A program made the position numbers and the translations under genes. The notes under the pieces are model-generated. The model ran no database searches. It saw nothing but the letters and a program-made list of their open reading frames with translations, and was not told the origin of the DNA. Positions 16,706-45,900 of a stretch of DNA of 64,000 nucleotides are shown here, in pieces. Within the stretch, counting starts at the first letter, position 1; each line of letters starts with the position of its first letter. Location: NCBI GenBank assembly GCA_050084515.1, contig CM114271.1, positions 26,040,001 through 26,104,000 of the forward strand, read 5' to 3'. Source of the stretch: Blasia pusilla. Taxonomy: Eukaryota.

Positions 16706-17159
16706 CTTCGCCGCGGAACATCTGCGTGACTTCTGCTGGATATATTGCATGGGACCGGGACCCCATGCCCGGTATATCCGGTTGTCTCCTTATCGTCGGT
16801 TGGAAATAGGTGGTAATGTCGGTCGGAAATAGCCTTCTGTTTCTTGTGTCATGTATTTGGACGGTGCGAGTTAAATTCAGGTCCCATGAATTGTTATCCG
16901 TCGGATCGAGAAAGATCCGGAGTCATGGGGCGGGTCTTGACGACCTCGGCTGCATGGAACCGGGTCCCACTCTTCCAGCGTGCATTTTATCCGAGATTCA
17001 TGATAAGTGTTAGATAGGGATGGAATGAGAGAAAACCCCTCCTCCATCGTTTACACCTCCTCTAAGTATTCTTTCCGTATTTTGTCACTTCAAAAGAATA
17101 ATTTAAATTCAAAAGAGATTATTATATTAAATGAGGAAGGGAAAGAAGGACAAGATCAC

Positions 17160-19440: not shown

Positions 19441-20049
19441 GTGAGGGACTAATCATGTTGCACAAAAAAATTTTTTAATTTCCCGTTGTTCTTAGAGGGA
19501 AACATTTTTTTGCGCCTGTACAATAGACCAACCTAAACAAGTACAATTCAAGATAAGTGAAAGGTTGAGAAGGGTGACAAAGTTGAGAAAGGTTAAGTGT
19601 TGGCAAAGGTTAAAAAAATTCATATGATTCTATTGATGGTAGTCTTTTGAAAGCTGCCAATTGTACTCGTCCCAAAATCAGTTTGCAATGAAAATGTTAT
19701 GTTGTTGCATGAAACAAAGGTTCTCTTTGAGGCAGCTTTGTGAGGGATTTTCTTGCCAATATTGGACATAAGTAGTTTACTGTGCTAATTAAAGTCCAAT
19801 TACCTTGTTAAATACAAGCAGATCTGCTGATACCAGAAAGAACTAAGCACATAAGTGCTCACCATCATTGCATTGAAGAGCTGATACAGAAGTAGATTCA
19901 TATGAGCAGTGGATTGTAATACCAATGATATGGTGACAAAAGCATCCCTCTTTACACATGTTTGCGTTCCATACGTTCCATATTTTCAATGTTGTTTCGT
20001 GTTCAAGGGTGGTGAGCGCCTCCAGAGCCTCGATATGGAATGTATAGAA

Positions 20050-23000
20050 TATTGAAGATTGAGTTACAGTCAAGCTCATGAGACACTTGAACTGCTATAT
20101 TTAGTACTCACACGAAGTAGGGAAGCTTAATCTTGGTTAGTCACTTAATCATGATTATCTTAACTAGGGTTAGTTAATCACAATTAGTCTAACTCGAGAC
20201 TATGGTTAAGGTTGCTTGTACATACCTTAATCATACACAATTGAAAGGGGACCAGACTCCACCCATCTCTCATTGCAAATTTTGTTCTCCATGGTGGTGT
20301 GTGAGTGTGAGAGCCATTTCCCACCAATTATGCTTCTTTAGTAGTTTTCCACATGATATCAGAGCGATAGGAGAATATTACTTGAAATTCTTGGTGTTTG
20401 AGGAGAGAAGAGAGGCAAGAGAAGGCACAATTTCAGTTTGGGAGAAGGAAATTTTGTTCAGAGCTGAGTGGATGCAGATTTTAGGTGGAGCTTTGATGGT
20501 GATAAAACTTTAGAGGTGTTTTTGAGGGCTTTCCCAGTCAATTTAGCCATCTAGGTCCACAGCGGCTAGGACGACGCCGAAGGCTCGTTCTAGGATAACG
20601 CCAAAAGCTCATTCTAGTTGGATACCAAAAGCCTATCTATTCATCTTGTAGAGCTTGTCAAGAGCTTTCTAACGCATCCAAAATCGCTTGATTCTGACAT
20701 TCTGAGCTCTTGCAGTAACAATTTCAGTATACGAAAGTGCAATTAGTGAAGAAAAGTTGCGCAGTTTGCTTTCTACAGGCCAATTTCGACTAGTTCTTTC
20801 ATACATTTGATCAATTTTGGAAAATTTCAGGTCAATTTCTATGTATGAGTGGTCTATGCTTCAATAGGAGCAGTAGAGAGCCTGAAATTACGTTTTAGTC
20901 AGTGAAATCGTTCGCCATGAAGTATTCCTCAACAACAATCACAAGCGAGAAGCTAGATAAGCAGAATTACAATGTTTGGAAGTTTCGCATGAAAAAATTT
21001 CTCATTGGTCAAGAACTATGGGAGCTTGTCACAGGTGATGAGGCCAAGCCAGAAGATGACTCAATAGACTTGAATATTCGCGCCTGGAATAAACGCGCAA
21101 GTAATCCAATATATTTCAATAACGATCAGTTTGCCAATGATAGGTCATATTCAAGATATTGATATTTCGAAGGAGGCCTAAGATGCATTAGAAAAGCTGT
21201 TCCAGACATCTACAAAGGCCAAAAAGCTTCAATTGAAATAATAATTGAATAAAGTGAGGAAAGGATCACAACATCAATGATTATATTTTGAGTATTAGAC
21301 GTATTGTTGATAAGTTGAATAGCATTGGAGTGATAATAGAAGATGATGATCTGATTTTGTTCACTTTTCAAGGCCTTCCGAAGGATTACAAGTCCTTTGA
21401 GACCTCTATCTCTATGAGAGAGAAATATCCAACTTTTCAAGAGTTAGTCCCATGGTTAATCAGTGAAGAGATGCGCCTAATATGCAGCGATAGCTCGTCT
21501 AGTTTGCAAGAGAGTGCGCTGCTTATAGGTTATGGATCAAAAAGAGGTAGGCATCGTGGCAGAAGCTTCCGTGGTCATGGTGGATATCAAGCATATGGAG
21601 GATGAGGCACTCAATGTAACGTCACTCAATCAACTACTAACCAATACTAGACACAATCACAAGGTGGTGATGATGGAAACCGTTGGGGTGAAGATCAACA
21701 GCAGAAGGTCCCTAGATCTTGCAATTACTGTGTGATAAAGGCTCACTATGCAAAGTTTTGTTTCAAGAAGAAGGCACATATGAGAACAAGAGCCTTACAA
21801 CAACAAAACTATGTGGAGCATCAACACTAAGAGCAGTACCAAGAACGACAACATTCACAAACGGAGTATCTCTTGGTCATCACTCATCATATGGGAGCAA
21901 TGATCAAGAAAGACTCGATAGCAGATTGGTACATTGACTTTGATGCATCAAATCACATGACCTCACAAGCTAAATGGTTCAGTAGTTTGGAGCCAGTGAA
22001 AGATCCTGCAATTGTGCTCTTGGAAATGTTCTCTATGTTCCTACCATTGTAAGAAACCTGATCTCTGTAGGACAGATAGTAGAACATGATTCTCAAGTGA
22101 AGTTTAACGTACATGGTTGTTTCATTGAAACAATGGATGACCAAACTACGATAGCCAAAGGAACTAGATCTGACAGAATGTTCCAATTAGATGTTTCTAT
22201 GCCAGAGATTCAAACAACAATGTATCGTTAAACCCACCAACAAGTCATAAATCTAAATATGTGGCATAAAAGAATTGGACATATGAATCTTCAAAGATTA
22301 AAGAGTTTTTCATCATCTAATATAGTAATAGGACTCCCTAAATTAGCGAGGTCTGCTACATTAGAGGTATGTCCTACTTGCCAATTGGGAAAAAAGGTAG
22401 ATTTCCTTTTCCAAAGCAAGGTAGAAGAGCATCTAGGATATTGGAGTTGATCTACAGTGATGTGTGGACAACATCACAACATAACCTTAGTGTTTGCTAG
22501 TACTTTCTTTCATTTATTGATGACTTCTCTAGGTATATATGGGTATACTTTCTGAAAGCCAAGTAAGAGGTATTCTCAGTGTTCCAAACATTCAGAGTTC
22601 TAGTAGAGAAGAAGATTGGAGAAACATTCTAAAATTGCCTTGTGAAGGAGGAGGAGAGTATCTTTCAACAAAGTTTGATGACTATTTACGTTAGAATGGC
22701 ATCCAACGTCAAGTGACTTGCCGTTACGTTCCACAACAAAATGGAGTGGCTGAGAGGAAGAATCGACATATTACTGAAGTGGCACGAGCTATGTTGAAAG
22801 AGAAGAACATGCCTAAGGTGTATTGGGCAGAGGGTGTAGCATGTGCAGTCTTCTTTATCAACCGAACTCCAATAGCAAGAGTTCATGATAAAACTCCATT
22901 CAAAGTCTTCATAGGAAGTAAACCTGATTTTTCCTTCTTGAAAGTATTTGGTTGTATTTGTTATGCTCATGTTCCTTTTGAGAGATGTCAGAAATTAGAC

Positions 23001-25311
23001 CCCAAGTCTGAAAGATGTATCTTCATTGGCTATGCTGATGGAACTAAGAGATATAAGTGCTACATTCCATCCTCTAGGCAGTTTATTATTAGTCCAGATG
23101 TTGTCTTTGATGAGCTAAAGTCCTGTTATGCTCCATTTGAGCCTATTCCACCTCTAAACTTGTCTGTCGAGGGGGAGAATATAATTGTAAACCAACAAAC
23201 ATTGTCTTCAACTTCCCCAAGTACTAGTGCACGATTAGGAGAGTCATAGATTCATCAGTTAAATTTATGAGTCTATGAACGGGAAGAGTACGTATTCAGT
23301 CTGTTGACACTAGTTAGAGCTCAAGTCAGGTGTTAGAGGCATCTACCTTTGAACAAAAACTTCGTAAATCAAGTAGAGTGATACATCTAGTTCATAGATT
23401 CATAAATGAAGGTTTCCTTATGACACATCATGCATATATGATGACTACCCTTCAAGAATAGGAGCCGAGTTGTTTTGAAGAAGCTTCAAGTAAAGTCAAA
23501 TGGATTGAAGCTATAGAAGAAGAGCTTGTTGCATTAAGACATCAACAAACATGGGAGCTGGTTGATATACCTTCCGATAAGGAAACTCTTGGTTGCAAAT
23601 GGGTTTACAAAATCAAGCGTAATCAAGATGGCACAATTAATAGATACAAAGCGAGATTGGTGGCTAAGGGCTATGTACTACAATATGACATCGATTATGA
23701 GGAAACATTTAATTTTGTTGCAAAGATGGCGACTACGAGAACAACGATTGTAGTTTCACTAAGTAAGAAGTGGAGATTACATCATATGGATGTCAAGAAT
23801 GCCTTATTGAATGGAGATCTATACGAGGAGGTATATATGACTCAACCACATGGATACAAGCATCCCAAGTTTCCATTTCGCGTATGCAGGTTGAAGAAAG
23901 CTCTATACGGGCTCAAACAAGCTCCAAGAGCTTGGTATGGCAAGATTACATATGTCCTACAAGAGTTGGGTTTAAGGGTATGTGATTTTGACTCCTCGTT
24001 ATATCTCTTGAGAGAACAAGATCATACGGTTCTCATTATGTTGTATGTTGACAATCTCTTGATTATTGGGAGTATTGAAGAAATGGTACAACAAGTCAAG
24101 CTTAAGTTACAAGGAGAATTTGATATGAAGGACTTTGGAGAACTCAAGTACTTCCTTGGTATTGAGTTTATCAAGGTTGGAGAGAGCATGTCATTAATAC
24201 AACCGCAATATGCTCTTCATATGCTTTCAAACTATGGTATGAAGGCTTGTAAGCCAATCTCTACACCGTTGGACCAAAGTGTGAAGCTAAGAGTGGATGA
24301 AGGAGAGTTTCTTGCATATTCTAATATGTACAGGCGCACGATTGGAAGTTTGATCTATCTAACTATAACTAGACCAGATTTGAGCTATGCTATTGGCCTA
24401 GTGAGCCAGTTTATGCAAGCATCTCGAAAACCTCACCTTGATGTTGTGAGGAGGATTATGCGGTATGTGAAATTCTCTATTCAATTTAGGCTTCAATTTG
24501 AACCTTCTCCGAGTTTTCAATTACAGGGATTCACAAATACAGATTGGGCAAGAAGCCTATCTGATCGACACTCCACATCTGGTTATTCATTTACTTTGGG
24601 AAGCGCAACTATAAGTTAGACTTCAAAGAAGCAAGATACATTTGCTTTATCTTCAACAGAGGTTGAGTACAAAGGAGCAACCAATGCAGCATGTGAGACG
24701 GTGTGGCTTCATCAATTACTTGTTGAGATTGGTGTTAGTCACTTAGGACCCAGTGTAATATACGAAGACAATATTAGTAGCATCAAGATTGCTAATAACC
24801 TTGTGTTTCATGCTCGTACAAAGCATGTTGAGATGCACCATCATTTTATCAGAGAGAAAGTGCTTGCAGGAGAAATTGATCTTGTGTATATAGGTACAGA
24901 TCAGCAAATTACTGACATCTTTACGAAGGTATTGTCTAGAGATAAGTTTGAGATGTTTAGAAATGATTTAGGCGTTAGAGAGATCGATATGAGCTTGAGG
25001 GGAAGTATTGAAGATTGAGTTATAGTCAAGCTCATGAGACACTTGAACTGCTACATTTGATACTCACACGAAGTAGGGAAGCTTAATCTTGGTTAGTCTG
25101 TTAAGCGGGATTATCTTAACTAGGATTAGTTAATCACAGTTAGTCTAACTTGAGACTATGGTTAAGGTTAGGGTTAGGTTTGCTTGTACATACCCTACAT
25201 AATTGAGAAGGGGACCAGCCTCCACCCATTATCTCATTGCAAATTTTGTTCTCCATGGTGGTGTGTGAGAGCCGTTTCCTATGAGTTATGGTTCTTTACC
25301 AATTTTCCAAA
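20050..25311 (+). mobile_element. Full-length degenerate Ty1/Copia LTR retrotransposon
   Basis: LTRs 20050-20353 and 25006-25311; PBS TGATATCAGAGC 20354-20365; PPT GAGGGGAAG 24997-25005; TSD TAGAA/TGGAA. Copia order gag-PR-GAG-pre-integrase (WHKRIGH)-INT (PQQNGVAERKNR)-RT (LYGLKQAPRAW, YVDN)-RNase H (HARTKHVE). Many stops and frameshifts. Confidence 0.96.
20918..25018 (+). pseudogene. Copia gag-pol polyprotein (disrupted)
   Basis: ORF fragments 20902-21162, 21288-21605, 22259-22450, 22713-23249, 23657-24619 and 24701-25018; RT YVDD changed to YVDN. Confidence 0.93.
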
Positions 25312-25905
25312 TGGAACGCATGAGGCCCTCTTTGCACTTAACGGAAAATACTTACATAATGACCAGAGTGTTTTGGATCTGTGTAAGAAGATCCTCAGTC
25401 TTGAGATCCAAAGAAGCTCGAGGGTGCCAAGTTAATCTTAGAAAAAAATTATTGCATTTCTAAGATTTCCGTTTGCCAATGCTCGAGCGTGGTTTATGCT
25501 TTTGGCGTTGGGGAGATAATTCAAGAGGCTGTGACTTCGTAGATTATGATGTACTACTTCGCAATCGATTTTTCTCACTTATGACGAAGATAGTCTTGGG
25601 TACTTTCTATATTATAGATGGTTTTCCAAGTTATGCTTTCAATCTTTGAAGATCTTGGATGGTGACATTGAGTAACATGGTGCAACGGAAGTTCCATAGT
25701 GAGTGTTGCTTCTTTGTCGAGTAGTTTTGATGTTGCGTGATTTGTCTTAAGAAAATGTCTAACTACAGCCAAGCTGTTAGCAACCATTTCTCTTGACCAC
25801 GAGCCTTTGATGATGCAGTTGCACGTGAGTAGCAATAGTAAACGTTGTGCTTGTTATCTATACGCACCCTAAATTAGTGTACAAATCATTATCCGGATTG
25901 CTGAG

Positions 25906-26121: not shown

Positions 26122-27485
26122 TATCTGAAACGACAAGCTCTAAGCATGCCCAGGTTTAGCAGTTGCTTGCAATGTCTTGCCTTGTTGTGGCAGGAGTATT
26201 GCCTACGATTATGCACAGCGCCACTATAATCTTATGAATGTTTAGTTCTATATATGTAGACATAGTACACTAATGTAGCTGGGACATCCCCTCTAGATGT
26301 TAGTTGGTATTAGGGCTGATCTGGTGTCCCTGTTGAGGGACATGGTCTTGCAGATGCAGTTGTGACAAATCAACAAAAAATGGGGGGAACGAATGATGGA
26401 GGCGATGCACACAATAGCTGCTTAATATATTGGCCAGTTTGGATCTTTGTGCTGGCATGTTCATGTGGTATGAAGGTTGGCAGCATTGGCATATGGATAT
26501 CTGGAAGGGGTATTGTATAGGGCCTCCAATAGTAACTGCATTGGATTATTGTCTGTTAAAAGGGTAAACCTTAACAAACTTCAGAATTGTAAGTATGGAA
26601 TTCAGTCAAGGAGCATGTATGAAGATCTGCCTATCTGAGGAGCATATACCCATAGTTCCCACAGCCATAGCTGTGAGCTCCCACGAATAGAGGACATCTT
26701 AGGGTTGCTGCTTACACCTTATATGCAGACCCTTAAATCACACATACTGAGTCTGGAAATAACTCTAATCTATTTTCTACAGAATGTGACAACAAAATAT
26801 CCCTACGAATATGCCCAGTTGTTTGTGAAAACCATGCTTAGAGAGGATAGAGAAGTAGAGAAACTGCACATAAGGTTAATCACTCATTGAAGGTCTACAA
26901 TGATTGCAGCTGAAAACCTTGATAAATCCCTGAGTGATGCACAAGTTTCTTTTTGGAAAGGGGGTGTGGGTTTATATGTTGGGATAGACCATACCACTCA
27001 AAAAAATTGACAGAAGTGATGTTTTAATGAATGCGAGGTCTGAAGAAGATTTTCTAATTTCTGAGAGTCATTGGAACTTGAGAGAGCAGGTTTCCCTTCG
27101 TTTCGGCTCATTTGGAGCCATATAGAGAAACTTACTATTTTGGGTAAGTTTTTATATTTGGTAGAGTTAACTTTCCACTTTAGGAAGTGGTCCTTGACTC
27201 GCTACAGCAGGTCAAGAGCTAAGGAGGTGACTTGTGAGCATAGGTTAGCAAGGAGAGAGCTTGGGAGAGGGAAGGGGGTATATCTCAAGGAGAGAGAGCT
27301 TGAGAGCTCATTCTCTCTTTGTTGAACCTCTTGGCACGTGGCAACGGAACTATGGTACCTTTCCTTATGAGTGTAACCCAAGCCTCTCATTAGGAGAGTG
27401 GGTTTGGTTTGACATTGAGAGAGACATGTGAGAGTGCACACATTTGAGAGCTATGGTGTTTAGAGAGATTGGATCTACTTGATTT

Positions 27486-27500
27486 ACAAAGAGAGAATGA
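27486..27500 (+). promoter_or_regulatory. Self-priming-type PBS of element A
   Basis: ACAAAGAGAGAATGA is the exact reverse complement of TCATTCTCTCTTTGT at 27308-27322, about 30 nt downstream of a TATA-like GGTATATC. Confidence 0.75.
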
Positions 27501-30500
27501 ATGGAGTGAGAGAACTTCATGGGGGAGCTCGTTGGTTGCTCGATGTGTGTTGCAGCTTGGGGGATCGTGTTCTCCGCTTCATGGCTCATAGGAGTGCTCA
27601 CCGGAGCTAGAGCCGCGTGAGTTTGCTGTTTTGATTTTCCTATGGGAGAGTGGTACGTGGAAGTGTTGGCCAATTTTTTATGGGAATTGAGTATGGGGAT
27701 GGATTGCTCCATCTTGGTGCTCTTGGAAGCACAATGTAGCTTGCTGGTTTGTTTTGTGATAGGTTTCACATTTTTTTGGGAGAAATCAGCGTGGAAGCGT
27801 TGCTAAATTTTGCGTAGGAGAAAGAGACGTTGGGCTGCACGACAATCCCTGTGAGTTTTTGGTGGAAAATCAAATAGAAAAACCAATTTGACAAGATCGG
27901 GAAGTTGTGTATGCTGCTGAAGAAATAGTGCACAATTTGGAGATTAGAGCACGGAGTTATGATCATTTTTGTTGGGCTGCCATCACCACCGTTCCAAGGT
28001 GTGAGTGAAATCTCCAAAATCCTTGGGTAAAAATCCTTGTTGATAGGTAGAAAAATAAAATCATGTTTCATCCTAGGAGATTGGACAAAGGAAAATTTCA
28101 GTTGAAGTAAGATTTTTTTTTAGGGGGGGTGTTGACCCTCAATTTTAGGAGAGAATTGTGAGAAACCCTCAAACTGCAATCTGTCAAAAGGGGGAGCAAT
28201 CAAGTAAGAGGCAAAAATAGTGGGGATCCGGAATTCTAGGGGGTTATTTTAGTTAGGAGGAAAAAAAATTGTGGTCAATCCGCTGCCGCGCAACCGCGGA
28301 CTCTTTTGCGACCGCGGTACGTTGCCGCATACTACCGTCCGTGACTGGCCTGCCAGAGACGCACTTCCCGGCTACGCTGCTATTTCGGATTTTCCGCCGG
28401 CATTTTCTTTGCCTGCCTGCCGCTTGTCTCCATCGCATCTCCGTAGCCGCCCGCCTTGCTGTCCCTGCTGGAGCCGCCGACGATCGCTTGCCGACCGCCT
28501 CTCCGTTGAGCCGCAGCTTCCGGCGCTCTATAAACGCGACCGTAGCCGCGTCCTTCTCCCGCCCTTCCGGCTCGCGGCCGCTGGATCTGGGCCATTGGGC
28601 TTGCACGCCGCTCTGTCGCCGCCGCTTCCAACCGTGCGGCTGTCGCCGCTCTTCCATCATTATTGTCGCATGCAAAATGTGAATTTGTGGTCTTTCCGTG
28701 TTGTGATTTCCGTATCGTTACGGTCGGACCCGCACCGTTCATTGGAGAGATTTTAGCATAGTCATTATTAAAGGAATATGATATGCTGCTTAGAAGTTTT
28801 GTCTCCACCGTCGAGTTGAGGTCGATATTTATAATTATTGAGGAGCGACATCGATATTTGTTCATGTTATTCATTCTGGTCTTTTGCCCTGCCATGTTGG
28901 GGAATTCTGGGTAATGGGCTGTTATATGGGATATTGAGTTTCGTGTTGATGCCCAAAGCATCATTGATGTATGGGTTTAGGGGACATAGACATGTGTGGG
29001 ATGTCCAGAGTTGAGGGTGTGTGATGTCGATGAGATGATAAGACAACAGACGATTTGCCGTACCATGCTGCTTGTTGCCGCAAAGCACACGTCTCAGTGA
29101 GAGAGTATAGCTTGAGTGCCGCATGTTAGATTGAGTGATTGGGTGATTACTCTCGAGGTTGATAGTGATTGTGTGAGAGGAGCACGAGAATCATCAACGC
29201 GTCCTTTTAGGACTTTGAGAGGCGAGGTGGTGGACCTGAGAGTAACTCTAGAGGATTTATCCGGAGTGGTGCGAGGTTACGAGAGTCTCCAAGTGAGAGA
29301 CCGCTTCAATCTCCTTCTGTGTCGTCTTCAGATAAGGGGGAGAGTATGGAGGAGTGTGCTAGTGATCCACCGCACACATTGAGTGGTCCTACCAGTTGGG
29401 TGTACGAGATGGACGACCGGGGTAGAGAACCGCGTAGGTTTTCGGGTGCTAAAGGCACTATAGAGTTACACGACTTCATGGCGGAGTTTAGGAGTTGGTG
29501 TGACTCATAGCACGCTAGGAACTCTAGATAGTTCAACCCATTTACAACATGGAACGGAATTTTCCAGCATTTAGAGGGGCACCCATGGACGATTACAATG
29601 AGATCTCGCAGAGATATGACCATGAGATTGAGGCCTTCAGACTCTTCTATGACCCATACTATCTGTTATGGATTGAGCCGTTTCCAAATGAGGAGGAGGA
29701 GTCAAGAGAGGGTTCCTCCACCAATGATGTTGTAGGAGGGGTGACTCGCACTAGAGCTGTTGCATCGTCTAGTCGAGTTTTTCCGAGGTTCAACCCCGTG
29801 CTTGAGTTCTTCGCTGAGTTGAGGGCGAGCTACTAAGGAGTACGGACGGGGAAGTTACGGAGCATCCACAACTTCCAAAGGCGCCCGGGTGAGAGTTTGC
29901 GTGAGGCCTACACCCGCTTGCGCCGGTTGATTAACGTCACTCATGGGATGACAGAGGCTCAGGCTATCCAGTCATGGTACGCGATGCTGGACCGGACCCT
30001 GCGGACTCGTGTGCGGAGGGGATGCTTCTTATGAACACCTCCCCTATGTTGAGAGATGTTTTTAGGACCACCGAGAACATTGAGCGCAACATGGCGGAGG
30101 AGACCGTAGCCACCATGGGTTTTGGGCGAGAGCAATCACGATTGCCTACAACACCAATGCAGCAGCATGGATTCCGAGATAAGTCTATGGCACCACGAGC
30201 TCAGGGAGGATACCGGGAGGCCGTGCCATAGAGACCTGCGCTTTCATATGCGGCTCAACAGCAAGCGCCTCCGATTACCTGTTGGTCATGTGGCGGAGCC
30301 CATCATTAGCGTGATTGCACTCGTCAGGGTCATGGTCGCATGGAGGAGGAGATGGTACTGTACCAGCAGGTTATTTGTGTGACTATTGTCACACTAATAA
30401 CACACGCGCCAGGTGTTTCAGCTTGCACTGTGAGTTGCATCCGGCTAGGGCTAGAGAGGATTCGAGAGCGAGTTGCCGGATTGGGTAGGCCTAGAGGTCG

Positions 30501-31619
30501 TGCACCAGGTGGTCCTTTTGGGGGACGAGGAGTTGGATTCGCCCGAGGGGGTGGTGGAGTTGCCCGTGGAGGAGGTAGAGTCCCACCACCTAGACGTGTC
30601 GAGGGAGACGTTGGGCGTGAGGTTGGGATGGCTGCTCAGATACAACAGATACAGAAGCATATTGACGATATGGCATTGAGGTTACCCAATGCCAGATGTG
30701 TGGCATCATGTTTAGAGGTGATTAAAGAGGAGGTGATGGACGTGCCCTTAGAGCTGATGCTTGGGTCGTCCACGTCAGATTCATGGCAGGCTGCGGCTGC
30801 TAGGATGGCGGAGATGCCCACTAGACCCGCAATAGAGAGTGCCATGGCTTCTCCTGCTCTTGGTTTGTTGGATAACCGGGGAGAGGTCTTCCAATTGGTG
30901 AGTCTAGGAGGTAGAGCTTTTAGTCTACAACGCATCTTGTTGGATTCAGGAGCACAACCCCTCATGTTGGGGAAAGTGGCATTCAAAGGTTTGGGCCTGA
31001 CGAGGGTCGATGTGGAGCGTTGTCCATTTTGGATACAAAAATATTTGAGTGGAGCGAGTACCACACAGTATATCGTCTGATAGGAGGTCGTGGTGAGGAT
31101 TCTCCAGGGACATCCTACAGATGAATTCATGGTACGAGCCAAGGCAATAGTGACTGATGCAGAGTCCTACAACGTCTTGGTTGGTGGAGCAGTGTTGTAC
31201 CCGATGGGGTTTTTAGTGGATTAATAGGAGAAGTCAGCCTCCTACAGACCAGGATGGCAGTTAGGTGATGGGCGCCTCAGCTCATTACCCATTCGATTCA
31301 TAGGTGCAGTGATCGAGCAACGGCCAGGAGAGATGGCGACCTTAGCAACATTTACCGGCGTCATCACTTGGCCTAGTGATTTGATTGAGGGACATATCCA
31401 TGTAGAGAACACTCTCGTTCCTGACATGTCTATGGAGAGGAGTGTCATGGTAGCCGCATAAGTCCGTGGAGCAGAGGTGCCACTTTGGGGCTCGACTAAG
31501 GAGCTTCGATGCTTAGCCACTGAGCATGTACAGATCGCGTGGAGCGAGACATTTGCACCAGAACGTGACGGGTTAGAGAAACCCGAGGTAGCTGAGAGTG
31601 CTATGATGACGCCCTTGGA

Positions 31620-32620
31620 TACCACACCCATTGTGTGGCGCATCCTAGAGGAGGGTATTCGAGTGTTGGATCTCTTTGGAGGGATCACCACTGGATTAGT
31701 TGCTGTTTAGCAGGGAGGAGTATGCGTGCAGTAGTACCTGTATATGGAGATTGATGATGTTGCAAGGCGCGCTTCACTTCACCATGTGGCGCAGTTACGC
31801 CTCCATTTTTTTGACTTTTTGTGTGCATCCGCTATCCAGGGATACCGGAGTTCCCTACCGAGGGATAGTTCATTGCTGGGGACGCAAGACTTGGAGCGGG
31901 TAGGGACCATAGACTTGGTCATTGCTGGTTGGCCGTGTCAGGGCCAATCGAGTGCTAGACAAGGTAGCGGGTTAGTTGACACACGGTCCAGGTTATTTTG
32001 GGAGATGATGTGGAATTTGCAACACTTGCAGGAGCATTAGTCCCGTTCTCCAGCATACATTCTGGAGAATAAGCCGATCTTGGGCGATTCGAGGTCAAGG
32101 TGGTGACGAGTGCACATCAAGTGTGTACATGGATCGACTCAATAGTATTTTTGGATGCGGCGAGTGTAGGTTCTAGAGCACACGGCCCGCGCCTTTGGTG
32201 GACCAACTTGATCGCACATGAGGTTTTGCGGAGGGCTTATGCAAGAGTGGAGCACCCCTCCGATTTGTTGGTGGATACTATTTTGGATCCAGGTCGTCAA
32301 TCACACGCAGTGAGGCACGATGATCGATCACCGTTGACTATGGTCAAGAGGATTGGCATGCGACGAGCAGTCTTTCCCACATTTTTGAGTTTTCCCGCTT
32401 CTTATGTAGTCAAGGAAGCCATACCTGGTTTGGTTTGGGATGACCAAGTACAGAGGTTGGTGGAGCCCAACGCCGATGGGCACGAGCGAGCGATGGGATT
32501 CCCCACTAGAGTGACGGTAGTATCATCACTATCAGAGGCATCACGACGTCTTTTCTTGGGTCACGCGATGGACCTGAATGGCTTGACATGGATTTTCAGC
32601 TTAGGCGTAGTTGAGCAGCA
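31620..32620 (+). pseudogene. C5 cytosine DNA methyltransferase domain within Pol of element A (disrupted)
   Basis: Motifs in order: VLDLFGG (I), EID (II), DLVIAGWPCQG (IV), YILEN (VI), RAHGPRLWWTNL (VIII), ERAMGFP (IX), LGHAMD (X). In-frame stops and a frameshift. Confidence 0.92.
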
Positions 32621-35600
32621 TCGTTTGAGGATGCGACAGATCACAACTATTGCGTTGGTGAGCCCCATACATGCCAAGATGGTTGAGGCAGTGGCCGGGG
32701 GCCAGATCGAGGAGATCGACATACTAGGGGTGATCGGGAGAGACACATTTGAGGAGATTGACACACCAGGGGTGATCGAGAGAGACACCCTTGGACTTCT
32801 TGGGATGTTTTGCACGTACGCCATGAGATGGTAGCCACAATATCGAGCGTGTTACTACACATGGAGGAGATCGGGTTTTACAGTTGGATGTAGGAGATCA
32901 GCCGAGTGCAACTGTCCGAGACGGGGTTGCACCATAGCAACCACCTACATCCGGGCCGGAGAGTCCTACTGTAATCACGATGGAGACTTGGGAGCGTGAC
33001 ATAGACCCTAAGTTCACAGGAGGAGAATGGCGCCGGATACATCAGTTCTTGAGGAGTTATAGGAGTTGTTTTGCATTTAGCATGCAGGATTTGGGTATGC
33101 TAAAGTGTCCAGGGATCCGCATTGAGTTGTCGAGTAACACACCGATCTTCCGACGATCCTACAGGTACTGTGACATGGAGAGGGCTCTAATTCAGAGTAG
33201 GAGCCAGGATTTGGTTGGAGTAGGACTAATGGAGATGTCGCATGGAGAGTATGCATCTGCCACTGTCATGCCCGCCAAGAAGGATGTGCATGGCAACTGG
33301 ACGGATAGGGGTATGTGTGGAGATTACCAACCTATCAATCGGCAGACAAAGTCTGATAGGTATGCCATGCCCATCCTAGAGGAGATATTTGATGCGATTG
33401 GGCATGCAAAGATCTTCAATTCATTGGATTTGCAAGCCGGATATCATTAACTGCCTATCAGATTGGAGGACACGCAGAAGACCGCATTTTGGGGCATCGA
33501 TCCTCACGGGAAGGATTGTTTGTACCAATGGAGGTTCTTACCATTCGGGTTTACGAACGCCCCAACTGAGTTTCAGAGGATCATGGATCATAGATCTTGG
33601 CAGGTTTGGATTTTGCTAGGTGTTATATTTATGACATCGTAGTCTTTAGCGCCACGGTTGAGGAGCATGAGCGACATCTAGAGGAGGTGTTCCGACGATT
33701 GTAATTACATGGGCTAAAGCTACATCCAGGCAAGTGCAAGTTCTTCTATGACCAAATTGAGTACTTGGATCATACATATACCCAAGGGGCCTTGGTGTGC
33801 AACAGACGAAGGTAGAGGCTATTTCACGCATTCCATGCCCTACATATGTGAGTTGAGTTCGTGCATTCATGGGATTGGAGAACTTCTATCGATGTTACAT
33901 CAAGGGTTTTAGTTTGATTGCAAAGCCACTAACCTTGCTAACTAGGTGGATCAGGAGTGGCACTCGGGGGATGAGCACGAGAAAGCATTTCAGCTGCTCA
34001 CGGACAGATTGACGTCCGCGCCCATATTGAGGAGATCGATCAGGGGGCGTCCTTTCCAATTGCATACCGATTGGAGCATGTTGGGGCTTGGAGCCGCGCT
34101 CACCCAACATAATGATGATGGTAGAGAGTTTGTGGTGGCTTACGCAAGTCACTCAAACAACGTTGCAGAAGCGAAGTATAGCTCGTATGAGGGTGAGTAC
34201 TTGGCTGCGGTGTGGGCTATCGCACATTTCAGTTGTTATTTATTCGACAACCCCTTTACCATCATTACCAATTATTAGCCACTTAAGTGGTTGATGGAGT
34301 CCGACAAGCCCACAAGGAAGCTTGCGAGGTGGGTTCTTTTTTTGGAGGAGTATGACTTCTAGGTGGTGCATAGACCTGGGATACTCAACCAGGATGCAGA
34401 TGGTTTGAGCCATAACCCATGCTCGAGTCAACAAGATGCAATTGGAGCTTGTTGGCATGGTGAGAGTGATGAGGAGTTGGTGCCAAGATGGCACGCGCCA
34501 GCCAATTTGGGACTACTGGCTATGGAGAGCCAGATTGCCGAGACTTTGATGGTGTGGTCTGATGGAGAGTTCTTGGATCCAGAGGTTGGTGAGGAGACAA
34601 CAGGTGGCCGAGATATTCACGACGATGGAGTGGTCTTGGAGTACCTACGTATTGGCAGTGTCGCGAGCATAGTGGTTGCTAGAGAGCGGGATTGGATCCT
34701 ACAGCAAGCCAGACGGTTCGGGTGGGAGGGGACACATGTGTTGCGAGTTTGGGAGGATGGTAGAGTCCGTAGAGTGCCTCATCCTTTGCAGAGAGCACAT
34801 TTGGTGCGTCATGCCCATGAGGAGTTGGGTCATTTTGGAGTGAAGCGGACGTACAACTTGCTCCAGATTCAGTATTGGTGGCGAGGCATGAAAAATGACG
34901 TTTAGTAATTTGTTGCCAGGTGGTGTGTGATCGAGTTTGGGCATCGTTCAATGCTCCGACTCCACAGTTACATCCACTTTCGATTATGGGTTTAGGTTAT
35001 AGATGGAGTTTGGATTTTGCAAGACCTTTACCTTTGGCGAAGCGCCATAGTCGGTATGTGTTGGTGATGGTCGAGCACTTCTTGAAGTAGATAGAGTTGG
35101 TTGCATTGCCTGAAAAAGAAAGTGAGGGAGTAGCATATGCCTTCCTAGATCAAATGTTGAGTCATTATGGTGCAACAGTTTAGGGTTTGACAGACCAGGG
35201 TACAAAGTTTCGCCAGGAGTTTCACGCCTTGTGTGATCAGGCACTGATCCACCATCGCACTACTTTGCGAGATCATCCTAAGGCGGATGGACTAGCGGAG
35301 CGGGTTTTGCAAACGGTGAAGAGAGGATTACGCAACTATGGCTTGTAGAGAGGTTACCTAGGAGATTGGGACCTCCAGTTACGGTGGTTGGCGATGGGAT
35401 ACAGATTCAACAGACAAACATCCTTAGCGTCTTTCTCACCGTACATGCTGCTCTATGGCCGAGAGCCAGATTTACCTACGGCCATTTGTCGAGAAATTGG
35501 TGAAGTTTTGAACCTTGATGACCATGATGTATGGATGCGAGCATCTTCTCAGAGGGCTAAGTTATTTCGGAGAGTGATGCCCAAGGTGTTTGAGAACTTG

Positions 35601-35794
35601 GTAATTGCGCAACATCGGGATACATTGAGGTATGCGACTATGCAGGGAGGTGGTTATCGACCTACTATCCGGAGGTTTCATCAAGGAGACTTTGTCTACT
35701 TGCAATAGATGGCACCAACAACGTTGGATGTGACTGCAGGGCGCACCATCTTGAGAGCGCGTGAGATTTTGCCATCTGGTGTTCTCTTGTTGGA

Positions 35795-36182
35795 TTCTCA
35801 ACATCCACTTCTCTGAGCACCATTAATCTGATCGCCCCCCTTGTATGAGGAGAAGCCTAGATTGATGGTTCCGACTTAGACGTCAAAGGAGTCATAGTAA
35901 TATGACGTAGGTGGTTTCAGGAGTAGCGTTACGAGGATTATCTAACCCAATTTTGCAAATTTTATCTATTAATAGAAACAAAGAAAATTAGGTAAAAACC
36001 GTAGTTTCTCGAGTAGTGAAATAGTCGGGAGCCGTAGCGGTAGCGCATTCTCGTATGTCGAGTTATCTCCATATTCAGGTTTCATTGAAGCTCTTATGTG
36101 AGCGCACGGACGGACTAGGCCACTTTGTATCTCTAGGTTTTGTAAAGATTTCAGTGATTTTGTCACTTTCTGTTTTCTCATA
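35795..36182. mobile_element. Unclassified 388-bp insertion in the integrase C-terminal region of element A
   Basis: Flanked by TCTCTTGTTGGA (35783-35794) and TCTCTTATTGGA (36183-36194). Removing it restores LPSGVLLLEGRDG; elements B and C lack it. Confidence 0.75.
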
Positions 36183-39100
36183 TCTCTTATTGGAGGGACG
36201 CGATGGTATGGTTTGGAAGGACCATGTGCGTAACTGTGCGCGATGTCATCTTCCAAAAATTGACGGTATAATTGATCCGAGCTTAGCAGTAGTTCCTGTA
36301 GGCTTGCGGTGTATGTTGTGTGGTTCAGCCACTACGCTAGTCTGTGATGGGTGTTCGAGAGGATGGCATATGGCATCTCTGACGCCATCTCTCACTAGGG
36401 TTTCTGAGGGACGATGGATGTGTCCCAGATGTACATAGAGTAGGTAGTTCTAGATTCAGACTTGTGTCTGTGACATGGATGACAAGAAGGGGACTAATGA
36501 TGGGGCCACATGAGCACCCAACCTTTTTGCTCTTAGCGTCCGAGAGATGTATATCATGGTAGGTAGGGATAGATGGCTACCTGGAGTTAGAGGGACCTAA
36601 CCACCAACTAGGGGGGCGATTGGAGATATTTTGGTACTTCTTGTCTCGTTGTTTGGATGACATGAGTTAGCATGGGATTTTACGTGTTTGTGTGTATGTT
36701 TGTCGACAACGATGTATGTTGTGTAGCGATGTGTATGCCCACGACAGCTGTCATGACTTTTCAAGATAGATGAGAGAGATCTGGTAGAGCGCCTTCACGA
36801 GTAGAGGAGGACACGCTCAGGAGGTCGAGGATGACGTGCTGAGGTCTTGAGAAACCTGAGAGAGCAAGTTTTCCCTTCGTTTCGGCTCATTTGGACCCAT
36901 ATAGAGCAACTTATTATTTCGAGTAAGTTTCCATTTTTGGTAGAGTTGAATTTCCACTTTGGGAAGTGGCCCTTGACCTAACCTATGGCTCTTGACCCGC
37001 TACAACAGGTCCAGAGCCAAGGAGGTGACTTGCAAGCATAGGTTAGCGAGGAGAGAGCTTGGGAGAGGGAAGGGGGTATACCTCAAGGAGAGAGAGAGAG
37101 AGAGAGCTTGAGAGCTCATTCTCTCTTTGTTGAACCTCTTGGCATGAGGCGACGGAGCTGTGGTCCCTTTCCTTGTGAGTGTAACCCAAGCCTCTCATTA
37201 GGAGAGTGAGTTTGGTTTGATATTGAGAGAGACACGTGAGAGTGCACACATTTGAGAGCTATGGTGTTGAGAGAGATTGAATCTACTTGATATATTGGAA
37301 ATATTTTGGTACTTCTTGTCTCGTTGTTTGGATCCCATGAGTTAGCATGGGATCGTGCGTGTTTGTGTGTATGTTTGTCAACAACGATGTATGTTGTGTA
37401 GCAATTTATATGCGCACAACACAGCCATTAGTAGCACATAGTAGTAAGAGCAACTGATGACCTGCAATTGGCAAACAAATTACATAAGAACAGAGAGGTA
37501 GTGCCCCGTATGAAAAAACGTAGAGGAAAATTTGAACACGGTGGCTTGCATTGCTAGATCAATGTTTTGCACTATAATCATCGGAATCAAATGTACTTAG
37601 GAATCGCAGGTTGCCACAAAGACGTTCGCAAGGGACACGAACTTAGAACCGCCACTGCAAGGAAACAACAAAGTATGGCGGCATGGTAGATCAGGATTAC
37701 AATTCCAGGAGATAGTAGGCAAAGATGAGGAGAGACCATCAATAGAGATAGGAAAGGAATGAATACGATTATGGCTGTAAGCCCTTGCGCTATGTAGTGA
37801 AAGCTAATATGGGCCGAACCTGGTGGAGGCGGCCAGTTACAGCTACAACAAATGCAGCCTATATAATTGCCACTCCCTAAAATAATGCAATTGCAAATCC
37901 ATGCTGTGGCGGACATTGTGCACGATTGGGCAGTAAGGCCGCTAAGATCGCAAAACAAAAAGATTCATCCAATGTGAAAAGACCTAAGAATTCAAATGGC
38001 ATAGCGTCCTAGGCCTTGGCGCAATAAAGAGGATGAAGAGCTTACAATAAGTTGTAACACGTATGTAAACTCAGCTTCATGAGGACCTGATTGCCAGAGA
38101 AGCACGCAGCCGCGCCATTGCATCCATGCCCCAAGCCGTTTTATTCTTACTAAGAATGGATAGGGATGCAATTGTGCATCAGAAATGAGAGACTAAATCT
38201 GTGTTGCGACAACGACCATACTCCTTGACAATAAGATAGCATCACAATTGCAATTGCGTTGTGGAGAGTGCATACACAATCTAGACATGACCAACATCCA
38301 TGGCCTATTGATATTGTCTGGAGAACAATTTATAGAGGCTGAATACCGCGAGCGGCGAGTCAGCAATCGAGAGCATAACACAGGAAGCATGAACTACCGA
38401 CAATAGTGGAAAACAATCCCAATGAATGGACACCGACAATTCCGTGTTTCCCTGTTTAGAACTCGAGTCTACCAAAGGCGTAACTCGCTCATCCGATGCT
38501 CTCACTGGTGAACACTTCTTGTGTGTAGCCATCGTAGCCTTCTTGCTGTGGCTGAAGCAAATCTCGAGGCTTGCGTAACAATCCATCAGCCAAACTAGTG
38601 ACGCATACATGTATTAGACACGTGGACACCTTGCGCGGTCTCTGCACTCCGAGGGATGTGTTGCGACCATTAGGGACGGTGGCAACACGGAGGGAGGCGG
38701 ACAAAGCTTGTGCACGTTGTAAGGCTACTGAGATATATTGCCAAAATTAAGGAGTGACTACAAAGAGAGAAGGACTATGAAGCAGTGATGGAGGCGGATG
38801 GGGACGGTGGAGGAGGATGCCATGGAGGGAAGGAGGAGGGAGATGGTTCGTGTGATATACCAAAATGGAGATCTCAGTCTCCTCTACGTTTTGATCCGCA
38901 TCATCGATCTTATAGTGAAGTATTTTTTGTTTTATTATGTTTTTTAGATTCTTGGTCTTATTATGGTTTCTCATGTAGGTATTATGATGCCCTTTGTTGT
39001 CTTGCCTCATTGTCAAGTTATGGACGTTTCCAAGATAACTCATGTTTTTCTTTCACACCACCCCTTTTTCTCTACATCCTTCCCTTTTGGCCATGCATAT

Positions 39101-42907: not shown

Positions 42908-45900
42908 ATGGGGATCACCGCAAATTTCGCTCTGCTTTTCCTAATGGTCGTAAGTGCGGGACAGGGAGCAGCAGAAACGACAGCAGGGCCTGCCCACACT
43001 AATACCTGGGCTGTGCTCGTTTGCACTTCTCGTTACTGGTATATCTCCCCACTGGATTTTAGTTGTTGTATGGTGCATTTCTAGTTTCAAGTGTGGCCAG
43101 ATCGAGAGACTTTGGCTCATCTGATGTCACAATGGGAAGCGTCATTACCTTTTGTTGGAAAGTTTGGAGGCTCTTATTTCTTTACAGACAGTGCATCCGC
43201 ATTGTTGTTTTCCGTGAGGTGAAATTTAGGAGTCTCCTTCATCAACAGCACCCATAATCTGCGATTATGCGTGCTGAAGGAGACGTATCCAATGGGGGAT
43301 TATTTTCCTGGGTATTGGTGACTGCCATGTTAGGGATTTGACTATGTGCATATTCTGGAAGGTTTCTCTAAAGGTGCCCTGCCTGTCTGCAGGTTTAACT
43401 ACCGACACATGGCGAATACTCTTTCTCTTTACAGGCAAATGTTCCTTCACCGTGATGCTATGCCCGTCAGTTGTTTTCTGAACCTCAAAGCAATAGCCTT
43501 TCCGAATTTTTGTTGGTTGTTACTTTTGGGAGTTGTTTCGAGCTTTTTCATGAGGGCTCAACTACATAAACCGAGATTCAACTCTATGTGAACTTGTTAT
43601 GGTATTTCAATTCCTGAAACTCTTCTGTCCATTTTGGAACTTTTATACTCTCAGGACAGTGAAGCGATTAGGGATTCCGGATGATCATATTATTTTGATG
43701 CTATCAGATGATATGGCCTGCAATGCAAGGAACAAGTATCCTGCCCAAGTCTTTAACAACGAGAATCATCGACTCAATCTGTATGGTGACAATGTTGAAG
43801 TAGGTGATTCTCCTCTCAGAAACACTCAAATCCTTGAGCAATTTTGTCATCTTGCATTATCACCATTCAGTGCAACTTATTATCTTGAAGCTTTTTCCGA
43901 TTTGGATATCTTGAGGAGGGACTCTCGTCTAACTGCTTGGATTCTTTATCCTGGAACACAAATTAAACCATGTTGACTGTTTCCCTTTACCTATTCTTTA
44001 CGATTTTCCTCCGGGCTATTAGAGCAGAGGCTAATCCTGATATTATATAGAAAGTACTCTTTTAGGGAGGCTACAGCAATCTTCACCAAATTGCTACCAG
44101 TGATTCAGTTGTTATTCCCATTCAGTTCGGGCTTATAATGTTGGACGCTCCTTTCACTCACCATTCCATCTGAATTATCAGTTCTCGTAGCATGTGTGCT
44201 CGTGCTCTTAATCTCGTCGTCATCAGAGCGCACAAAGTGCTGAATCTCAAAGCTTTTGGTTTGTGCAGGTAGATTACAGAGGCTATGAGGTTACAGTTGA
44301 GAACTTTTTGCGTGTGCTCACAGGTCGACATGATGCTGCAGTGCCACGCTCCAAGCGATTGCTAAGTGATGAAGGTAGCAACATACTGTTGTACATGACT
44401 GGGCATGGAGGTAATCGATTCTTGAAATTTCAGGATGCGGAAGACATTCAAAGTCATGATCTGGCCGATGCTTTCGCTCAAATGCATGAGAAGAAAAGGT
44501 TGAGTCTTGTTCTTGGCTGGCATATGCCTATAGTGATGTCAGAGGACAACAGTGTAATCTGATTGATGTAACGTGAGGATTTAGCTGCTGCAATCTGATT
44601 CTAGGCCTCAGATTTCAACTGAGATACCTATAGTGATGTGCTTGTTTGACTGTCTCAAGTATAATTTCTGTACCACTTTCAGTAACTGGGATAGTTATCA
44701 GGGAATTTGGGGTGCTGTAGCCTAGAATGTGCTTCTTTGACCAGAGTATGACGTTCTCAAAGCAATAATAATGGAGTGGTAAATGCATTGAGAACATGAG
44801 TATGAATTGGGAAGGAAAATCATTTCTCTTGACTTCCATTTGCCTACAGAGGATTTATTGCCTGCACTGATTTAGTTCTCCCATAAGGAGGAAAAGAGGG
44901 TCCAGGAATCACTCGAGCAGTATCTGCATCAACTACTGACATGGAAAAAATTGTGCAGATATCGGGAGCTTCTAGTTATGGTTGATACCTGCCAGGCTGC
45001 CACTCTCCATTCTCAGGTGCATATCAGTCCTCATGGTCAAAATCTGATGCTCAGAATTAGCTCCATGGTAAAGAAGACCTGTCGAAGGGGGAAATTATGA
45101 CTTGCATAAATTGATGTAAATCCCTGAGAGGGTAGTGCCTATATGGTATGTAGGTTCATGAGTGCCTTGTTCTTTTTCAATAACAACGGCAATGTGATAT
45201 GAATTATTAGTAACAGTATACCTTTTTTGCTCTTGTAGCAATGACAAAAGGCGTACTTTAGCATCTTTTGCTACTCATTTTACTATTTTCTGGCAGCTCA
45301 AATTTTAGTCAATTGTCGTTTTTGAGACTGATTCAGCTTCTGCAGTGTTTCTTAGAGGGTTCTAGATTTCTAATGGGTGTATTTGGTATGTAAATTGGGA
45401 TACAGTTATATTCTCCAGGAGTCCTGGCCGTCGGCAGCAGTTTAAAGGGGGAGAGTTCTTATTCACACCATCTTGACCCAGATGTGAGTTCTGGTGTTTC
45501 GTGTAGTCTCTGATGTGAATTTCTGGATTTTTGTTATATGCAATCAATCTTCCATAGATTTGCTGCTGCCTGTTGGTTCTTCATGCTGAAAAGAGGAATC
45601 TTCTGATGAGACCTGAAACTCTGATGTTAAAGGAATAGCAGTCTGCAACTAGGCTTGTAAAAGCTGGAGTGCTAAGCAACAGGAAGTAGGACAGTGGGAA
45701 AAAGGTTGCAGTGCGCTATAATTGGGTACATTTTCATGACAGAAATCGTAGGGAGACTGAAGCCTTCAGTACAATTCTGATGCACTGTAGTAGACAAGTC
45801 GGCAGGCATTACTGGCAATTAACCACTAGAGCAATTACTGCTGTCAGTAGTTACAACCTGCAAAGTTTCTGGCATATTATGAGTCAATAACTGGAGCAGT

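Follow-up and report, generated by a model that had tools for sequence, protein, structure and literature searches.

Does a cytosine methyltransferase found inside a broken-down retrotransposon belong to that retrotransposon and, if it does, what might it do there? The question is raised by a 64,000-nucleotide stretch of Blasia pusilla DNA (GCA_050084515.1, contig CM114271.1, positions 26,040,001 to 26,104,000; here called the window), in which a decayed Ty3/Gypsy-type element on the forward strand, element A, carries a DNA methyltransferase (DNMT) segment between a protease-like (PR) region and the reverse transcriptase (RT). A second, diverged copy (element B) and part of a third (element C) lie on the reverse strand. 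The METHYLTRANSFERASE domain is an integral, selected part of the retrotransposon family, and the family is transcribed in this organism, where it is present at high copy number; element A itself is an old, inactivated copy, and both window copies (A and B) no longer yield these proteins. Element A is probably an inactivated member of a Ty3/Gypsy family of the KnitGypsy-Dnmt3 kind, with split direct repeats, the domain order Gag-PR-DNMT3-like-UAG-RT-RNase H (RH)-integrase (IN)-PHD, and the mode of action that we propose below.

The methyltransferase domain in the window

The initial annotation of this locus listed seven C5-methyltransferase motifs (I, II, IV, VI, VIII, IX and X) in canonical order, and all seven were located in that order in element A, on the forward strand between 31620 and 32620 (Table 1). 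When searched with the Pfam profile PF00145 (cut-off 22 bits), the piece of element A that contains motif IV scored 29.6 bits (E 6.2e-07) and the matching piece of element B 37.9 bits (E 1.8e-09); ten of ten relatives scanned scored 27.7-54 bits. The motif set and profile match in element A are real and far beyond chance, so that the annotation of a genuine C5-methyltransferase domain holds. The domain is also collinear with the other retrotransposon domains, as had been described, with the PR-like region upstream of it and RT downstream. Of the Ty3/Gypsy set, RT, RH and integrase were recovered by Pfam in elements A and B (PF00078, PF17917/PF17919, PF17921 and PF00665). The PR call draws on relative P0077, whose matching stretch weakly resembles Asp_protease_2 (E 2.8e-4, 22 bits; cut-off 24.3), and the gag of element B gave a weak match to PF03732 (E 0.0037, 17.9 bits; cut-off 24.1).

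What did not stand is the integrity of this particular copy. In element A the domain is broken by in-frame stops at 31708-31710, 31732-31734 and 32041-32043, and by a fourth stop after SRSRW, where the reading frame shifts (about 32076-32124). Motif VI reads ENK in element A as compared to ENV in the relatives and in element B, and motif VIII reads AHG as compared to AHR. Element B retains an intact form of each of the seven motifs (ENV, AHRPR); two frame changes interrupt the domain there, at sites other than those of element A, and a stop at 54705-54707 on the reverse strand lies in the tail, immediately downstream of the domain. Both elements retain the catalytic residues, Cys in motif IV and Glu in motif VI. 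Methyl transfer to C5 of cytosine, dependent on S-adenosylmethionine (AdoMet), is a predicted activity only for this domain, and the window copies of it are broken.

A segment so full of stops, with a change of frame in its middle, might have been foreign to the element: a nested insertion, a fragment of a host gene private to this copy, or a chance resemblance. Single broken pieces, when compared with the sequences of the PDB by phmmer, gave weak matches (E 2e-4 to 0.04), as such an origin would allow. We nevertheless consider it very improbable. The tblastn map placed the DNMT at the same position in elements A and B, which are diverged from one another and carry independent lesions, and PF00145 scored above its cut-off in both. 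When 5.8 billion proteins were searched, the C-terminal half of the element B DNMT returned 944 candidates, 63 of them at E ≤ 0.001, whose named sources were Marchantia polymorpha, Calypogeia fissa, Riccia sorocarpa and four Sphagnum species. One of the Marchantia proteins, P0007, is an uninterrupted open reading frame (ORF) of 1278 amino acids, representing a cluster of 18 member sequences, that includes gag, a CCHC knuckle, protease and DNMT. Continuous DNMT-containing ORFs without introns were found in P0007, P0008 and P0077, and the relatives P0011 and P0045 have RT and RH behind the DNMT. The shared layout of element B, with its lesions elsewhere, and the intact gag-PR-DNMT ORFs of Marchantia indicate that the domain belongs to the element and was not nested into it. 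Both a missing PF00145 match and a nested insertion lying out of frame in intact copies, either of which the initial annotation would have taken as contrary evidence, were looked for, and neither was found.

The segment is also widespread. An exhaustive HMMER search with the intact relative P0002 (368 amino acids) matched 4268 proteins at E ≤ 0.001, 965 at ≤ 1e-10, and 269, counted as protein clusters, at ≤ 1e-30; many of the matches were 1000-3456 amino acids long, with the matching segment internal. The segment is present, moreover, in 80 related loci taken from metagenome contigs. Between elements A and B, the ratio of non-synonymous to synonymous substitution rates (dN/dS), a check that the initial annotation had suggested across copies, was 0.19-0.20 for the DNMT, similar to PR and RT (0.17 each), with 0.135 for RH; dS was saturated, so that these figures are crude and probably overestimates. 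Among 53 diverse aligned relatives, the catalytic Cys (motif IV) and Glu (motif VI) were invariant (53/53), and H222, R223 and R225 of motif VIII were kept in at least 90%.

A conserved stop codon between methyltransferase and reverse transcriptase

The initial annotation described the methyltransferase as fused into Pol. We found that a stop codon separates the DNMT tail from RT in element A, in element B, and in every related locus in which the junction could be placed. In element B the DNMT tail runs in frame into a TAG and RT continues in the same frame on its other side (…SCEGVG, stop, QPMASSS…); in element A the TAG stands directly before the homologous QPPTSG. The six bases after the stop (CAA CCA in A, CAG CCA in B) fit the pattern UAG_CAR_YYA, described for tobacco mosaic virus as a leaky-stop context of type I (PMC3542737). 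Among the metagenome loci, which are mostly decayed and not independent of one another, 51 retained the peptides that flank the junction, and all 51 had a stop at that codon (39 TAG, 12 TAA) and no sense codon. In a stricter set defined by the junction pattern, the stop was followed by CAA CCC in 46 of 50 loci and by CAA CCT or CAA CTC in the rest. Both flanking domains could be mapped in 46 loci, and in 38 of these the DNMT frame reached the junction stop without meeting another stop. These loci demonstrate that the stop was carried by the founders of several subfamilies.

The ORFs of relatives also end after the DNMT, at conserved positions that are specific to a clade: in the liverwort-type clade the tails are 76-82 residues long and end in …PKVFA or …PPLEQVS, while in a sister clade they are 98 residues long and end in …NALSATK. 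Because the stop falls precisely at the border of the DNMT tail with RT, in elements A and B as well as at all 51 loci, the DNMT is the C-terminal module of a Gag-PR-DNMT frame, upstream of a Pol part composed of RT-RH-IN-PHD, which would be joined to it only through readthrough or another kind of recoding. A subclade of relatives (P0077, P0215, P0216 and P0266) is continuous through PR-DNMT-RT-RH-IN with no stop, and the stop is thus a feature of the bryophyte-type clades and not of all relatives.

The same codon could be the boundary of two separately expressed genes, with RT-RH-IN-PHD expressed through a spliced or subgenomic RNA, through reinitiation, or through some other form of recoding. 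We regard this as unlikely, although several observations would suit it. RNA structure on the 3' side of the stop did not exceed that of shuffled sequences (z 0.13 and -0.30); type I leaky contexts, however, require no RNA structure. In most relatives the stop is followed by CAA CCC, in agreement with CAR-YYA at five of six positions rather than all six, but the codon directly after the stop was CAA or CAG in every case seen. Twelve of the 51 loci have TAA; against this, a stimulating effect of CARYYA on readthrough is reported for UAA too (PMC3542737). Joints seen only in RNA do occur in the family (e.g., 33097 to 34173), yet RT follows in the same frame right behind the stop, and the junction contains no AUG (QPMASS in B, QPPTSG in A). 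Readthrough of a leaky stop is the reading we carry forward.

Copy number and transcription

One DNA and three RNA runs of raw reads were mapped on 29200-36500 at 85% likeness, the DNA run being read to about 1% (1,966 million letters). Summed depth in the DNA run was about 735-975 across the four DNMT bins and rose to about 2,800 elsewhere, and the two strands stood at about 1:1. In any genome larger than about 1 Gb, such a depth corresponds to hundreds to thousands of copies. Some 16-20% of the words of the stretch occur in low-coverage DNA runs of the source species, which fits a high-copy repeat. Depth per DNMT bin was 7-28 in the three RNA runs, and the strand bias about 18:1; in run X15, for example, the sums over the four DNMT bins were 80.5 and 4.5 for the two strands. 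RNA reads at least 99% like copy A numbered 8-39 per run, those less than 90% like it about 3,000 per run.

When compared with the majority of copies, copy A has A or T where the reads have G or C at 440 places, as compared to 167 places in the reverse direction, the kind of excess that C-to-T decay should leave in an old, methylated copy. The ratio of observed to expected CpG (0.58-0.77) was not lower in the elements than in the rest of the window (0.59) and is thus uninformative about their methylation. Joints in both DNA and RNA reads showed that some 44 nt of the DNMT tail of element A (32707-32750) are missing from most other copies. A joint between 33097 and 34173, which skips 1075 nt and has four other letters between its ends, was observed in 12, 18 and 8 reads of the three RNA runs and in 0 reads of the DNA run; it ends in TG..GC and so is not a canonical intron.

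Affinity of the methyltransferase

From its motifs, the domain had been annotated as DNMT3-like. A profile built from the 53 relatives and searched against PDB sequences agreed with this, matching DNMT3A at 1.8e-27 (99.5 bits), DNMT3C at 8e-25 and DNMT3B at 1.6e-24, ahead of tobacco DRM at 2.6e-16 (62.7 bits), Arabidopsis DRM2 at 4e-13, the bacterial M.HhaI at 2.6e-09 (39.6 bits) and DNMT2 at 7e-05; no chain of DNMT1 or of chromomethylase (CMT) was matched at E < 0.01 in that search. Motifs I-X are un-rearranged in the element, whereas DRM is permuted, the motif I-IV part of the profile aligning to its C-terminal residues 221-352.

An AlphaFold model of relative P0002, based on the 53-row alignment, reached a mean predicted local distance difference test (pLDDT) score of 92.8; an earlier run on a shallow alignment of 31 rows, with a pLDDT of 50, was discarded. 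With this model as the query, all of the Foldseek matches listed from the PDB (ranks 1-49) were DNMT3A, DNMT3B or DNMT3C, with target template-modelling (TM) scores of 0.80-0.86 for isolated catalytic-domain chains. The next sequence matches outside the family were insect DNMT3 proteins with PWWP and ADD domains. No Pfam match to PWWP or ADD was found in the 13 long relatives scanned, in which a PHD finger is present but lies after the integrase. The ESM Atlas gave generic C5-methyltransferase clusters only, one of them streptophyte. A DNMT3-like identity, ahead of the DRM and bacterial enzymes, is supported by the profile and by the modelled fold.

Relatives and their architectures

The protein searches found many copies in Marchantia, Riccia, Calypogeia and Sphagnum; the statement in the initial annotation that standard land-plant Gypsy lineages lack the domain is not true of bryophytes. 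When 146 retrieved proteins of at least 900 amino acids were mapped with reference segments, two domain orders were observed, both confirmed by Pfam on five examples. In 34 proteins the DNMT lies behind the protease and/or before RT, as in the window. In 104 it lies behind RT/RH and/or before the integrase (RT-RH-DNMT-IN-PHD and partial forms; e.g., P0070, P0086, P0092 and P0115). Seven of the rest contain DNMT only, two of these being insect DNMT3, and one contains RT-RH only. The PHD finger follows the integrase in both classes. The PR-DNMT-RT class has bryophytes as its named members, and the RH-DNMT-IN class has green algae, including 'pol' of Scenedesmus sp., Chromochloris, Haematococcus and Cymbomonas, and the long green-algal proteins reached profile E-values down to 1e-156.

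A maximum-likelihood tree, unrooted, was reconstructed from 78 DNMT domains randomly thinned from 216 eligible rows (138 left out); the two insect DNMT3 rows had been dropped by a coverage filter of 270 residues. The deepest split, with support of 99 by the Shimodaira-Hasegawa-like approximate likelihood ratio test (SH-aLRT), placed 28 PR-DNMT-RT rows on one side, along with 9 unlabelled ones and the 2 from the window, and 34 RH-DNMT-IN rows with 5 unlabelled ones on the other. Elements A and B fell within a clade of 15 rows (support 100) together with Marchantia and Calypogeia proteins. The two classes look like a single Gypsy lineage in which the methyltransferase can occupy either of two slots. 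A broader statement would be that PHD-finger Gypsy elements form an old superfamily across the Viridiplantae, with the DNMT in either a bryophyte-type (PR-DNMT-RT) or a green-algal (RH-DNMT-IN) slot, and that the bryophyte branch is still transcribed, is present here in hundreds to thousands of copies, and makes its DNMT at the abundance of Gag, upstream of a leaky UAG. We give this broader statement a little less than an even chance. If it is true, DNMT3 activity encoded by transposons could contribute to bryophyte methylomes, and Marchantia would make the genetics possible.

Proposed mode of action

The proposed sequence of events is as follows: translation of the genomic RNA would give an abundant Gag-PR-DNMT polyprotein, terminated at the conserved UAG. 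A minority of ribosomes, and we lean modestly towards this step, would pass the stop in its context of the tobacco mosaic virus type, adding RT-RH-IN-PHD. The protease would then free the DNMT which, having been made along with Gag, would reside in or near the particle in excess over RT. There, as we suggest tentatively, it might use AdoMet to methylate cytosines of the new cDNA or of DNA at the insertion site. Finally, the PHD finger on the integrase may read histone tails and so influence the choice of insertion site. Methylation of the element's own cDNA is a role that we infer.

A number of observations weigh against this account. Elements A and B are both broken, and element A is substituted in motifs VI and VIII as well. 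Most RNA reads are less than 95% like copy A, so that the transcripts come from other family members, and the strand bias would mean sense-strand RNA given the usual chemistry of stranded libraries. To these are added, from the junction, the lack of structure beyond shuffles, the five-of-six agreement with CAR-YYA in most relatives, and the subclade that has no stop. The DNMT of the Klebsormidium element gave no DNA methylation in the one published test in yeast, a result its authors called inconclusive (PMC5890265). No Klebsormidium sequence was present by name among the matches of our protein searches, and kinship with KnitGypsy-Dnmt3 is by architecture only.

The domain may have been kept for something other than methylating its own cDNA: methylation of RNA or of host DNA at insertions (marking or hiding copies), self-dampening, or use as a DNA-binding or targeting module with little catalysis. 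Such alternatives, RNA methylation and self-limitation among them, appear in the discussion of the Klebsormidium study (de Mendoza et al. 2018; PMC5890265), and the same yeast result would accord with them. A position upstream of the stop implies, in addition, a large excess of DNMT over RT that a single cDNA per particle would not need. The invariance of the catalytic Cys and Glu and the retention of the motif VIII residues argue for catalysis, however, and the closest folds are those of de novo DNA methyltransferases and not of RNA enzymes of the DNMT2 type (1.8e-27 for DNMT3A as compared to 7e-5 for DNMT2). We consider another role improbable, and retain methylation of newly made or insertion-site DNA as the working proposal.

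Other features of the window

The coordinates of elements A, B and C, and of the remaining features, are collected in Table 1. The repeats of elements A and B are arranged as DIRS-like split direct repeats (A1 - internal - B1 - A2 - B2), not as plain long terminal repeats; in element B, A1 and A2 are 94% identical and B1 and B2 97%. Split direct repeats are as in DIRS and Ngaro elements, yet A and B encode a DDE integrase and are without a tyrosine recombinase. A purine-rich stretch just upstream of B1 is conserved across elements A, B and C. The PHD finger after the integrase takes the place that the chromodomain has in chromoviruses, and is also present in distant green-algal relatives.

Element C contains B1 (60517-60633), followed by about 80 nt and then by the A1 of element B (60435-60053); it is without an A2-B2 of its own. 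Elements B and C, about 70% alike, thus stand head to tail as though one junction served both. About 310 nt of RH are tandemly duplicated in element C (62491-62802 and 62808-63119, 86% identity). The inverted DNMT-region fragment within its RH region matched residues 75-132 of the element B DNMT at 74% identity by tblastn. Elsewhere in the window, host genes with introns and Copia elements mark nuclear eukaryotic DNA; the Copia remains include long inverted matches between 175-2118 and 20048-22019.

Table 1. Coordinates of features in the 64,000-nucleotide window, with strand and the evidence for each.
Feature	Position	Strand	Evidence or remark
Element A, decayed Ty3/Gypsy-type retrotransposon (A1 - internal - B1 - A2 - B2)	27075-37421	+	Self-BLAST, repeat alignments, tblastn and Pfam domain map
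A: repeat A1, pairs with A2	27075-27486	+	85% identity to 36853-37294
A: gag-like region	29241-30016	+	tblastn with element B gag, 35-43% identity
A: protease-like region	30760-31494	+	tblastn with element B segment, 45% identity over 251 aa, E 3e-62
A: DNMT3-like C5 cytosine methyltransferase domain, motifs I-X	31528-32620	+	PF00145, motif coordinates, translations, alignment with intact relatives
A: motif I, LFGGITTG	31672-31695	+	Element A translation
A: motif II, YMEIDD	31741-31758	+	Element A translation
A: motif IV, GWPCQG	31927-31944	+	Element A translation
A: motif VI, ILENKP	32059-32076	+	Element A translation
A: motif VIII, SRAHGPRLWWTN	32172-32207	+	Element A translation
A: motif IX, ERAMGF	32484-32501	+	Element A translation
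A: motif X, LGHAMDLN	32556-32579	+	Element A translation
A: C-terminal tail of DNMT frame	32621-32934	+	Translation, alignment, read joints
A: conserved UAG between DNMT and RT	32935-32937	+	Followed by CAA CCA
A: reverse transcriptase	32938-33588	+	tblastn with element B RT, 65% identity, E 1e-95
A: RNase H	33946-34287	+	PF17919 E 2.2e-28, PF17917 E 7.9e-21
A: integrase, H2C2 zinc finger and core	34789-35498	+	PF17921 E 1.5e-11; tblastn with element B integrase pieces, 72-73% identity
A: about 400 nt missing from most other copies, interrupting integrase C-terminal region	35783-36182	+	Joint 35782 to 36183 in DNA (633 reads) and RNA reads; split tblastn match
A: PHD finger, C-terminal end of integrase frame	36310-36432	+	PF00628 E 1.4e-06
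A: repeat B1 (128 nt), pairs with B2	36619-36746	+	91% identity to 37294-37421; just upstream of A2
A: repeat A2	36853-37294	+	Self-BLAST, repeat alignment
A: repeat B2, just downstream of A2	37294-37421	+	Self-BLAST, repeat alignment
Element B, second diverged copy, same domain order and split direct repeats	50585-60435	-	About 65-72% nt identity to A
B: repeat A1	60053-60435	-	Self-BLAST, repeat alignment
B: repeat B1	51075-51182	-	Self-BLAST, repeat alignment
B: repeat A2	50692-51073	-	Self-BLAST, repeat alignment
B: repeat B2	50585-50692	-	Self-BLAST, repeat alignment
B: DNMT3-like domain	54708-55720	-	PF00145 E 1.8e-09
B: conserved UAG between DNMT and RT	54474-54476	-	Followed by CAG CCA; RT in same frame
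B: reverse transcriptase	53811-54473	-	PF00078 E 6.5e-12
B: PHD finger after integrase	51361-51477	-	PF00628 E 3.7e-07
Element C, third copy, cut by window end before its DNMT	60512-64000	-	
C: 164-nt DNMT-region fragment, inverted, within RNase H region	63283-63446	+	89% complementary to element B 54839-55002
CLC chloride channel with CBS domain, host gene fragment	4728-8420	+	
Prolyl-oligopeptidase-like (S9) host piece	15450-16789	-	
Peptidase C13 host piece	43554-43976	+	
Copia-type remains (gag_2, RVT_2, SH3-like integrase domain)	1-2120, 20048-25314		

Comparison with known systems

Cellular DNMT3A, DNMT3B and DNMT3C, and the plant DNMT3 and DRM enzymes, are the best profile and fold matches of the element DNMT, which shares with DNMT3 the motif order I-X, a motif VIII of the type AHRxRxxWxN, and a motif X (LLGxxxx) without the GN of bacterial enzymes. 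It differs from them in several respects: identity to DNMT3A/B is only about 20-22%, motif IV has PCQ where DNMT3A has PCN, the stretch between motifs VIII and IX is longer, no PWWP or ADD domain adjoins it, and it is not permuted as DRM is. The leaky stops of tobacco mosaic virus and murine leukaemia virus resemble the junction described here in having an in-frame UAG and an abundant upstream product with a rarer extension. In murine leukaemia virus, however, the stop lies between Gag and PR, whereas here both PR and DNMT are upstream of it; leakiness here is predicted from sequence, with mostly CAA CCC in the relatives. Chromoviruses likewise have a reader of histone tails fused to the C-terminus of the integrase, presumably for targeting, but theirs is a chromodomain and not a PHD finger (PF00628), and to our knowledge they are without a methyltransferase.

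Two retrotransposons of Symbiodinium that also encode a C5 cytosine methyltransferase, SymbioDIRS-Dnmt3 and SymbioLINE-Dnmt, are built on other backbones (DIRS with a tyrosine recombinase, or LINE) and occur in another host lineage, and the authors regard the capture there as independent; the enzyme of SymbioDIRS-Dnmt3, which is Dnmt3-like too, methylates CG de novo when tested in yeast (PMC5890265). The green-algal relatives have a DNMT3-like domain of the same family (34-41% identity), a Gypsy backbone and a PHD finger after the integrase, although their DNMT lies between RH and the integrase and falls on the other side of the deepest split in the tree.

The published Gypsy-DNMT3 case is KnitGypsy-Dnmt3 of Klebsormidium nitens (de Mendoza et al. 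2018; PMC5890265), with which the initial annotation had associated the locus. By architecture, the family described here is of the same kind: the Ty3/Gypsy domain set, an intron-less and un-rearranged Dnmt3-like domain in the polyprotein, purifying selection on that domain, and terminal repeats in the DIRS-like split arrangement, which the legend of Fig. 4 in that paper states for the Klebsormidium element. The kind is therefore already known, as streptophyte Gypsy-DNMT3 retrotransposons, and the family here is another member. It differs in that the hosts of its nearest named relatives are land plants (liverworts and Sphagnum) and not a charophyte alga, in that it is high-copy where K. nitens is described as having few copies, and in the location of the DNMT between PR and RT, upstream of a conserved stop, as far as can be judged from the text description of KnitGypsy-Dnmt3. 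Later papers of the same group (PMC12344493; bioRxiv 10.64898/2026.05.21.726589) refer, in the text available, only to 'streptophytes'. Full-text literature searches returned no paper that names bryophyte or chlorophyte Gypsy-DNMT3 elements, although figures and supplements may hold more.

To the known kind this analysis adds the range across bryophyte land plants, with intact copies in Marchantia, the Gag-PR-DNMT-stop arrangement, and the second, algal architecture. A de novo methyltransferase carried by a retrotransposon inverts the usual view of methylation as a weapon of the host against transposons. In the literature searched, the only streptophyte example in print is that of Klebsormidium, the enzyme of which could not be demonstrated to be active; with an abundant, transcribed element here and intact relatives in Marchantia, the question becomes testable in a tractable plant. 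The published capture was described as an event 'in the K. nitens lineage' (PMC5890265); the bryophyte range and the widespread algal sister architecture suggest a capture that was much older, or more mobile, than that.

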